From NCBI RefSeq assembly GCF_003018115.1, contig NZ_CP027457.1: a DNA stretch of 64,000 nucleotides, one strand, 5' to 3'. Made by a program: the position numbers and the translations under genes. The notes under the pieces are model-generated. The model was not told where the DNA came from. It was given only the letters and a program-made list of their open reading frames with translations, and ran no database searches. Source of the stretch: Escherichia coli. GTDB lineage: Bacteria > Pseudomonadota > Gammaproteobacteria > Enterobacterales > Enterobacteriaceae. Of the stretch, positions 61,070 through 64,000 are shown one piece after another. Positions within the stretch are counted from its first letter, which is position 1; each line of letters starts with the position of its first letter.

Positions 61070-64000
61070 ATGGACGTCAGTCGCAGACAATTTTTTAAAA
61101 TCTGCGCGGGCGGTATGGCTGGAACAACAGTAGCGGCATTGGGCTTTGCCCCGAAGCAAGCACTGGCTCAGGCGCGAAACTACAAATTATTACGCGCTAA
61201 AGAGATCCGTAACACCTGCACATACTGTTCCGTAGGTTGCGGGCTATTGATGTATAGCCTGGGTGATGGCGCTAAAAACGCCAGAGAAGCGATTTATCAC
61301 ATTGAAGGTGACCCGGATCATCCGGTAAGCCGTGGTGCGCTGTGTCCGAAAGGGGCCGGTTTGCTGGATTACGTCAACAGCGAAAACCGTCTGCGCTACC
61401 CGGAATATCGTGCGCCAGGTTCTGACAAATGGCAGCGCATTAGCTGGGAAGAAGCATTCTCCCGTATTGCGAAGCTGATGAAAGCTGACCGTGACGCTAA
61501 CTTTATTGAAAAGAACGAGCAGGGCGTAACGGTAAACCGTTGGCTTTCTACCGGTATGCTGTGTGCTTCCGGTGCCAGCAACGAAACCGGGATGCTGACG
61601 CAGAAATTTGCCCGCTCCCTCGGGATGCTGGCGGTAGACAACCAGGCACGCGTCTGACACGGACCAACGGTAGCAAGTCTTGCTCCAACATTTGGTCGCG
61701 GTGCGATGACCAACCACTGGGTGGATATCAAAAACGCTAACGTCGTAATGGTAATGGGCGGTAACGCTGCTGAAGCGCATCCCGTCGGTTTCCGCTGGGC
61801 GATGGAAGCGAAAAACAACAACGATGCAACCTTGATCGTTGTCGATCCCCGTTTTACGCGTACCGCTTCTGTAGCGGATATTTACGCACCTATTCGTTCC
61901 GGTACGGACATTACGTTCCTGTCTGGCGTTTTGCGCTACCTGATCGAAAACAACAAAATCAACGCCGAATATGTTAAGCATTACACTAACGCCAGCTTGC
62001 TGGTGCGTGATGATTTTGCTTTCGAAGACGGCCTGTTCAGCGGTTATGACGCTGAAAAACGCCAGTACGATAAATCGTCCTGGAACTATCAGTTCGATGA
62101 AAACGGCTATGCGAAACGCGATGAAACACTGACTCATCCGCGCTGTGTGTGGAACCTGCTGAAAGAGCACGTTTCCCGCTACACGCCGGACGTCGTTGAA
62201 AACATCTGCGGTACGCCAAAAGCCGACTTCCTGAAAGTGTGTGAAGTGCTGGCCTCCACCAGCGCACCGGATCGCACAACCACCTTCCTGTACGCGCTGG
62301 GCTGGACGCAGCACACCGTGGGTGCGCAGAACATCCGTACTATGGCGATGATCCAGTTGCTGCTCGGTAACATAGGTATGGCCGGTGGCGGCGTGAACGC
62401 ATTGCGTGGTCACTCCAACATTCAGGGTCTGACTGACTTAGGCCTGCTCTCTACCAGCCTGCCTGGTTATCTGACGCTGCCGTCAGAAAAACAGGTTGAT
62501 TTGCAGTCGTATCTGGAAGCGAACACGCCGAAAGCGACACTGGCTGGTCAGGTGAACTACTGGAGCAACTATCCGAAGTTCTTCGTTAGCCTGATGAAAT
62601 CTTTCTATGGCGATGCCGCGCAGAAAGAGAACAACTGGGGCTATGACTGGCTGCCGAAGTGGGACCAGACTTACGACGTCATCAAGTATTTCAACATGAT
62701 GGACGAAGGCAAGGTTACCGGTTATTTCTGCCAGGGCTTTAACCCGGTTGCGTCCTTCCCGGACAAAAACAAAGTGGTGAGCTGCCTGAGCAAGCTGAAG
62801 TACATGGTGGTTATCGATCCGCTGGTGACTGAAACCTCTACCTTCTGGCAGAACCACGGCGAGTCGAACGATGTCGATCCGGCGTCTATTCAGACTGAAG
62901 TATTCCGTCTGCCTTCGACCTGCTTTGCTGAAGAGGATGGTTCTATCGCTAACTCCGGTCGCTGGTTGCAGTGGCACTGGAAAGGTCAGGACGCGCCGGG
63001 CGAAGCGCGTAACGACGGCGAAATTCTGGCGGGTATCTACCATCATCTGCGCGAGTTGTACCAGGCCGAAGGTGGTAAAGGCGTAGAACCGCTGATGAAG
63101 ATGAGCTGGAACTACAAGCAGCCGCACGAACCGCAATCTGACGAAGTAGCTAAAGAGAACAACGGCTATGCGCTGGAAGATCTCTATGACGCAAATGGCG
63201 TGCTGATTGCGAAGAAAGGTCAGTTGCTGAGTAGCTTTGCGCATCTGCGTGATGACGGTACAACCGCATCATCTTGCTGGATCTACACCGGTAGCTGGAC
63301 AGAGCAGGGCAACCAGATGGCTAACCGCGATAACTCCGACCCGTCCGGTCTGGGGAATACGCTGGGATGGGCCTGGGCGTGGCCGCTCAACCGTCGCGTG
63401 CTGTACAACCGTGCTTCGGCGGATATCAACGGTAAACCGTGGGATCCGAAACGGATGCTGATCCAGTGGAACGGCAGCAAGTGGACGGGTAACGATATTC
63501 CTGACTTCGGCAATGCCGCACCGGGTACGCCAACCGGGCCGTTTATCATGCAGCCGGAAGGGATGGGACGCCTGTTTGCCATCAACAAAATGGCGGAAGG
63601 TCCGTTCCCGGAACACTACGAGCCGATTGAAACGCCGCTGGGCACTAACCCGCTGCATCCGAACGTGGTGTCTAACCCGGTTGTTCGTCTGTATGAACAA
63701 GACGCGCTGCGGATGGGTAAAAAAGAGCAGTTCCCGTATGTGGGTACGACCTATCGTCTGACCGAGCACTTCCACACCTGGACCAAGCACGCATTGCTCA
63801 ACGCAATTGCTCAGCCGGAACAGTTTGTGGAAATCAGCGAAACGCTGGCGGCGGCGAAAGGCATTAATAATGGCGATCGTGTCACTGTCTCCAGCAAGCG
63901 TGGATTTATCCGCGCGGTGGCTGTGGTAACGCGCCGTCTGAAGCCGCTGAATGTAAACGGTCAGCAGGTTGAAACGGTGGGTATTCCAATCCACTGGGGC
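61070..64000 (+). CDS. fdnG: Formate dehydrogenase-N alpha subunit FdnG (selenoprotein; in-frame TGA at 61655..61657; partial at window end)
   Basis: Tat signal (RRQFFK), Fe-S Cys motif (CTYCSVGCG); the frame reads through TGA as ...ARV-U-HGPTVASLAPTFGRGAMTNHW... with no further stop to 64000. Confidence 0.9.
61658..61700 (+). ncRNA. Putative SECIS mRNA hairpin directing selenocysteine insertion in fdnG
   Basis: Imperfect hairpin (ggtagcaag tc ttgctcc) starting about 10 nt after the UGA, by analogy with the fdhF SECIS. Confidence 0.45.

Follow-up and report, generated by a model that had tools for sequence, protein, structure and literature searches.

The in-frame UGA codon of Escherichia coli fdnG and its downstream SECIS stem-loop

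Introduction

Does the gene that begins at position 61070 of the DNA analysed here stop at its in-frame TGA after 195 codons, or is this TGA translated? The window, i.e. the whole 64 kb stretch of Escherichia coli DNA that was analysed, ends within this gene. A mechanical list of open reading frames (ORFs) contains a plus-strand ORF of 195 aa at 61070–61657, whereas a first-pass annotation had assigned the gene to fdnG and its TGA to selenocysteine (Sec), noting a hairpin behind the codon and an open frame that runs on to the end of the window.

We consider it practically certain that UGA196 of E. coli fdnG is read as Sec by means of a SECIS stem-loop located immediately downstream. Both the selenocysteine codon and the SECIS of this gene are already known and fully characterised, and no novelty is claimed for either. 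The biology of E. coli fdnG has been settled since 1991 by genetics, crystal structure and mass spectrometry. The importance of the case is limited to annotation: UGA–Sec recoding leads naive ORF callers to split fdnG into pieces of 195 aa and 803 aa. The coordinates of all features assigned to the gene are given in Table 1.

Results and discussion

The reading frame remains open beyond the TGA

Reading of the sequence places the TGA in frame on the plus strand. Translation of the frame from 61070 to 63997 yields 976 codons, among which this TGA is the sole stop. The two statements of the first-pass annotation about the frame, that a 195-aa ORF ends at 61657 and that the frame continues without stops to the window end, were both borne out. 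All 780 codons 3′ of the TGA are open, and the downstream stop codon which had been named as refuting evidence does not occur among them. Over this stretch the two remaining forward frames are interrupted by 37 and 46 stops. The probability of finding 780 open codons by chance, computed from the base composition, is 2.7e-15. The window holds codons 1–977 of the 1015 codons of fdnG (the 5′ 96%), so that the 3′ end of the gene is located outside. The minus strand opposite fdnG has several long ORFs, for example one of 389 aa at 61244–62413. These are taken to be antisense shadows of the coding region; none of them is supported by the evidence collected.

The gene encodes the alpha subunit of formate dehydrogenase-N

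Several complete E. coli chromosomes contain window positions 60900–64000 with 100% identity; among 5426 complete genomes of the species, 5425 have a match to this region. At a 100%-identical locus, RefSeq/PGAP annotates a single fdnG CDS of 3048 nt which reads through the TGA, preceded by yddG on the opposite strand and followed by fdnH and fdnI. The latter two lie beyond the window end, but are present in this RefSeq locus, whose overlap with window positions 60900–64000 is 100% identical. They code for the beta subunit (fdnH) and the gamma subunit (fdnI), the operon partners of the formate dehydrogenase-N alpha subunit.

The translated protein scores 1560.6 bits against the NCBIfam equivalog TIGR01553 (formate dehydrogenase-N subunit alpha; cut-off 814.2), despite its truncation by the window end. 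Residues 1–976 are matched by chain A of PDB entries 1KQF/1KQG with four substitutions, at positions 342, 435, 493 and 666. The order of the domains is that of formate dehydrogenase-N alpha: an N-terminal twin-arginine motif is followed by the Fe4S4 domain (PF04879), the molybdopterin oxidoreductase domain (PF00384) and the molybdopterin dinucleotide-binding domain (PF01568). The PF00384 match is broken by the TGA, with profile positions 1–68 before and 97–300 after it. Because this domain starts upstream of the codon and has its remainder downstream, it is a single domain split by the TGA. PF01568 is encoded 3′ of the TGA, and the proposal that the frame after the TGA encodes the molybdopterin domain holds for most of PF00384 together with PF01568. 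The SRRQFFK twin-arginine motif is in keeping with an Fdh-N catalytic subunit that resides in the periplasm (PMC3160892). Judged by its sequence, the gene is E. coli fdnG. As in the K-12 gene (PDB 1KQF), the Sec codon is number 196 and the 59-nt SECIS has an identical sequence; apart from the four residues within 1–976 the two genes differ only by strain-level polymorphism such as a synonymous codon 193 in the window.

Table 1. Features of the fdnG region, in window coordinates.
Feature	Position	Strand	Basis
Shine-Dalgarno-like GAGGA, 5 nt 5′ of ATG	61060..61064	+	Sequence reading
fdnG CDS, formate dehydrogenase-N alpha subunit	61070..64000	+	Translation, TIGR01553, 1kqf_A, RefSeq CDS in identical locus
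Twin-arginine (Tat) motif S-R-R-Q-F-F-K, residues 4–10	61079..61099	+	Read from translation
Molybdopterin oxidoreductase Fe4S4 domain, residues 44–104	61199..61381	+	Pfam PF04879, 64.7 bits
Bacterial SECIS, Rfam RF01989 SECIS_3	61652..61710	+	84.3 bits, model positions 1–59/59
UGA codon 196 = Sec196, active-site molybdenum ligand	61655..61657	+	1kqf_A X196, fdoG/fdhF alignment, PMC3636253
SECIS stem-loop, nt 6–46 from U of UGA	61660..61700	+	MFE = centroid, −12.7 kcal/mol; Rfam structure line agrees
Bulged U17, unpaired between paired G16 and A18	61671	+	MFE structure; fdhF fold likewise unpaired
Apical loop G23-U24-C25, 19 nt after UGA	61677..61679	+	MFE fold

Codon 196 specifies selenocysteine

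Alignment with FdnG, FdoG and FdhF, the check that had been suggested for this codon, places the TGA opposite residue 196 of 1kqf_A, a non-standard residue given as X, and opposite a TGA in both K-12 paralogues, at codon 196 of fdoG and codon 140 of fdhF. The query for the PDB search carried C as a placeholder at position 196; the best match from outside E. coli, 9qm0, has C opposite 196 and, given that placeholder, is uninformative as to whether Sec or Cys is present there.

In published mass spectrometry, residue 196 of both FdnG and FdoG was Sec and in no case Cys, and translation terminates at UGA196 when selenocysteinyl-tRNA-Sec is lacking (PMC3636253). Sec196 is a ligand of the active-site molybdenum, and a selC mutant is devoid of Fdh-N/O activity (PMC3160892). 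As cited in PMC13188914 and PMC3160892, the first assignment of the fdnG selenocysteine is that of Berg et al. (1991). Of 5426 complete E. coli genomes, 5424 carry the selC gene (tRNA-Sec); the window itself contains none of selA, selB, selC and selD. The reading of the in-frame TGA as a selenocysteine codon is supported by X196 in 1kqf_A, by the aligned TGA codons of fdoG and fdhF, by the published mass spectrometry and by the SECIS_3 match described below.

A SECIS element follows the UGA codon

In the 64 kb window SECIS_3 is the only Rfam family that reaches its gathering score. Its score of 84.3 bits compares with a gathering score of 63 (E = 8.9e-20, and 1.4e-18 for the whole window), whereas the fdhF-type family SECIS_2 (RF01988) yields 28.8 bits on the same element against a gathering score of 70.

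The hairpin begins 3 nt 3′ of the in-frame UGA, inside a CDS that is open for 780 codons further. Folding of 61655–61700, which had been proposed as a check for the hairpin, yielded a stem-loop on which minimum free energy (MFE) and centroid structures agree; its MFE is −12.7 kcal/mol over 46 nt, and −10.3 kcal/mol over 40 nt. Counted from the U of UGA, nucleotides 6–13 are paired with nucleotides 38–46. The upper stem consists of 5 bp closing the apical loop, plus 2 bp past the U17 bulge. In fdhF, a bulged U17 below the apical helix is a determinant of SelB recognition. The published model of bacterial SECIS elements specifies a loop of 3–9 nt in which position 1 or 2 is a G and the next base is G or U, an upper stem of 4–16 bp, a spacing of 16–37 nt between UGA and apical loop, and an MFE of at most −7.5 kcal/mol (PMC13188914). 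The fdnG hairpin satisfies all of these constraints, having a 3-nt loop that starts with GU, a spacing of 19 nt, and a stem and an MFE within the limits. Fold and SECIS_3 match together substantiate the hairpin noted in the first-pass annotation.

Two other formate dehydrogenase genes of E. coli share this arrangement to different degrees. In fdoG (formate dehydrogenase-O alpha) the TGA is likewise codon 196 and the predicted fold is the same; the gene differs in belonging to another operon at another locus (fdoGHI-fdhE). In fdhF (formate dehydrogenase-H, Sec140, SECIS_2) the hairpin is in the same register as in fdnG, leaving U17 unpaired and placing G23-U24 in the apical loop, and the peptide context ARV-U-HGP is conserved in both. 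However, the stem sequences of fdhF and fdnG differ, and FdhF is a cytoplasmic, shorter protein (715 aa) without Tat signal.

Proposed route of selenocysteine insertion

The codon, the open frame, the gene identity and the match to SECIS_3 were computed here, as were the geometry and conservation of the element; the presence of Sec at 196, the coordination of molybdenum and the termination at UGA196 without Sec-tRNA-Sec were taken from the literature. Binding of SelB, GTP and Sec-tRNA-Sec to the apical part of the SECIS, with delivery of Sec at UGA in competition with release factor 2 (RF2), is the established E. coli pathway. The gene fdnG encodes the Tat-exported, bis-MGD- and [4Fe-4S]-containing catalytic subunit of the respiratory formate dehydrogenase-N. 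The mRNA just 3′ of UGA196 folds into the SECIS stem-loop with its bulged U17 and its G23-U24 loop. By the established pathway, SelB with GTP and selenocysteinyl-tRNA-Sec (the selC product) would bind to the apical part of this hairpin, and the arriving ribosome would be supplied with Sec-tRNA-Sec at the UGA, competing with RF2. Translation then proceeds through the remaining 819 codons, and the selenocysteine side chain comes to coordinate the molybdenum of the active site. If Sec-tRNA-Sec is missing, translation halts at codon 196.

The element is conserved within the species and between paralogues

The 59 nt of the element recur unchanged in 5432 of 5433 E. coli records. The only exception, NZ_CP061758.1 (E. 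coli O68:H12 strain 97.3), has CAT instead of CAC at codon 197, a C6-to-U change by which a G-U pair is retained in the MFE structure. Between 61640 and 61720 the window shows one difference from most E. coli, the synonymous exchange GCA/GCG at codon 193, which is located 5′ of the element and is a variant common to only 6 records.

The genes fdnG and fdoG of K-12 are 74.8% identical in nucleotide and 77% in amino acid sequence, yet over codons 195–217 (69 nt, window positions 61652–61720) not a single base differs. No other stretch of identical codons in the fdnG/fdoG alignment is as long as these 23 codons; the second longest has 12. Among codons 196–215, all 19 of the 19 synonymously variable codons are identical, as compared with 58% gene-wide; for this pre-specified position the chance of such identity is approximately 0.58^19, or about 3e-5. 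Lack of conservation after the TGA, the other finding that had been named as refuting, is contradicted by the 5432 identical records and by the identity with fdoG.

The perfect identity of fdnG and fdoG could in part stem from gene conversion rather than from selection at the RNA level. The identical block of 69 nt runs a few codons beyond the Rfam SECIS model, and its length, which is the sole prompt for the following readings, would fit a block kept not by the minimal SECIS alone but by gene conversion that recurs, or by a further RNA function such as a longer contact with SelB or the ribosome; alternatively, the 195-aa fragment carrying the Tat and Fe–S parts, produced under selenium shortage, might itself be functional. 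We regard these readings, even taken together, as quite improbable, and prefer a UGA196 that is read as Sec with the help of the SECIS.

In NZ_CP061758.1 there is a single copy of fdoG length (3051 nt), which is annotated as fdnG; the best SECIS copy of this record, at positions 701–781 of the retrieved locus, is the one that differs. One of the two respiratory formate dehydrogenases may be missing in strain 97.3.

The hairpin exceeds chance by its geometry, not by its energy

The folding energy of the hairpin is not beyond chance: relative to dinucleotide shuffles its z-score is −0.6 to −1.9, and among synonymous recodings 75% equal or exceed the real hairpin in stability. For these recodings the 15 codons 3′ of the TGA were replaced by synonymous ones, using the codon usage of fdnG itself. 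Since the stability is statistically ordinary, energy alone could not have identified the SECIS. Free energy was therefore dropped as a criterion on account of the shuffle z-scores and the recodings, and the covariance score and the geometry were used instead.

The specific geometry, an apical loop with G23-U24 plus a bulged U17, was kept in only 7 of 4000 synonymous recodings (0.175%). Even when the Ser203 codon was held as AGU, only 4% of the recodings gave this geometry. The element makes use of codons which are rare in fdnG, namely GGA (5 of 83), CCA (6 of 49; used twice), AGT (3 of 55) and CTT (2 of 79). The hairpin exceeds chance by its match to the covariance model and by its specific geometry, not by its energy.

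These data bear on a reading in which the UGA is passed independently of any SECIS, by a near-cognate tRNA-Trp or tRNA-Cys, with the hairpin being a by-product of coding constraints. An energy that does not surpass the shuffles or the synonymous recodings is what such a by-product would show. A covariance score far above threshold is not, nor are a geometry so seldom kept on recoding, the use of rare codons, and synonymous sites that are frozen between the paralogues fdnG and fdoG. Furthermore, Cys was never detected at position 196, and without selenocysteinyl-tRNA-Sec translation terminates at UGA196 (PMC3636253). Read-through of this kind is very improbable, more so than the readings based on block length, and SECIS-directed insertion of Sec is retained.

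Truncated fdnG products in the databases

The exact 195-aa N-terminal fragment of FdnG is present in a public protein collection, where it occurs in at least 1000 contigs. The same is true for the exact fragment of 803 aa whose start is codon 213, the first ATG downstream of the TGA (also at least 1000 contigs). The deposition of both fragments demonstrates that naive callers do split fdnG. The first-pass annotation had expected truncation by automated callers in general; this stands for the naive callers that produced the 195-aa and 803-aa fragments, but not for RefSeq/PGAP, which annotates one CDS of 3048 nt. A variant 195-aa fragment from the same 90%-identity cluster (EFN8991448.1, 26 contigs) bears the NCBI name ‘sulfate ABC transporter substrate-binding protein’, a wrong annotation for what is a truncated piece of a selenoprotein.

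Taken at face value, the separately deposited fragments would suggest two genes, one for a 195-aa Fe–S protein ending at the TGA and the other for an 803-aa protein starting from the ATG at codon 213. However, PF00384 spans the TGA, 1kqf_A is one continuous chain over both parts, and codons 197–212 would be non-coding in such an arrangement although they are conserved and match the crystal sequence. The purification and the structure that have been published likewise contradict two genes, and we attach a next to negligible probability to this arrangement as opposed to a single selenoprotein gene. Just as hard to credit is an inactivating nonsense mutation or a sequencing error that makes fdnG a pseudogene in this strain: it would account for the stop of the mechanical ORF list at 61657 and for the truncated 195-aa database entries, but is already refuted by the conservation, as the 59 nt which include the TGA are the same in all E. 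coli records save one, and it is at odds with the TGA at the aligned codon of fdoG and fdhF, with the 780 intact downstream codons and with a solved structure that has a non-standard residue at 196.

Further observations in the window

Consensus scans for NarL and FNR upstream of fdnG yielded plausible sites which are not above chance for the window. A NarL 7-2-7-like site (TACCGCTATTGAGGTA) is located at 60929–60944 and an FNR-like site (TTGATTTCGCGCAA) at 60992–61005, both 5′ of fdnG and with 2 mismatches each to the consensus. Fdh-N is induced by nitrate and under anaerobic conditions, and the candidate sites agree with this induction.

Several other loci were noted, some of them in comparison with F9792, the otherwise closest genome. 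An intact VgrG-like ORF (25862–28006, 714 aa) is found together with an Rhs ORF (28744–32250, 1168 aa). F9792 lacks about 2.5 kb, corresponding to window positions 26609–29130, and has fused tssI/Rhs pseudogenes annotated. This reflects either a strain difference or a repeat that was collapsed in the F9792 assembly. An element of the ISAs1/ISEc1 family, about 1.29 kb in length, is present in three copies (at about 33119–34412, 40583–41871 and 42915–44207). Each copy has a transposase ORF of 378 aa; the three are about 98% identical to one another and are situated among Rhs core and tip fragments.

Two adjacent ORFs on the minus strand, 55853–57127 and 57169–58434, code for about 420 aa each. 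The former corresponds to the leucine-rich-repeat (LRR) T3SS effector EspR1 in F9792. The latter has 421 aa in the window, whereas F9792 has only a short LRR pseudogene remnant at this place, annotated as missing its C-terminus. An ORF of 402 aa for an RNA-guided endonuclease of the InsQ/TnpB family is located at 1583–2791; its counterpart in F9792 adjoins an IS200/IS605 tnpA with an internal stop.
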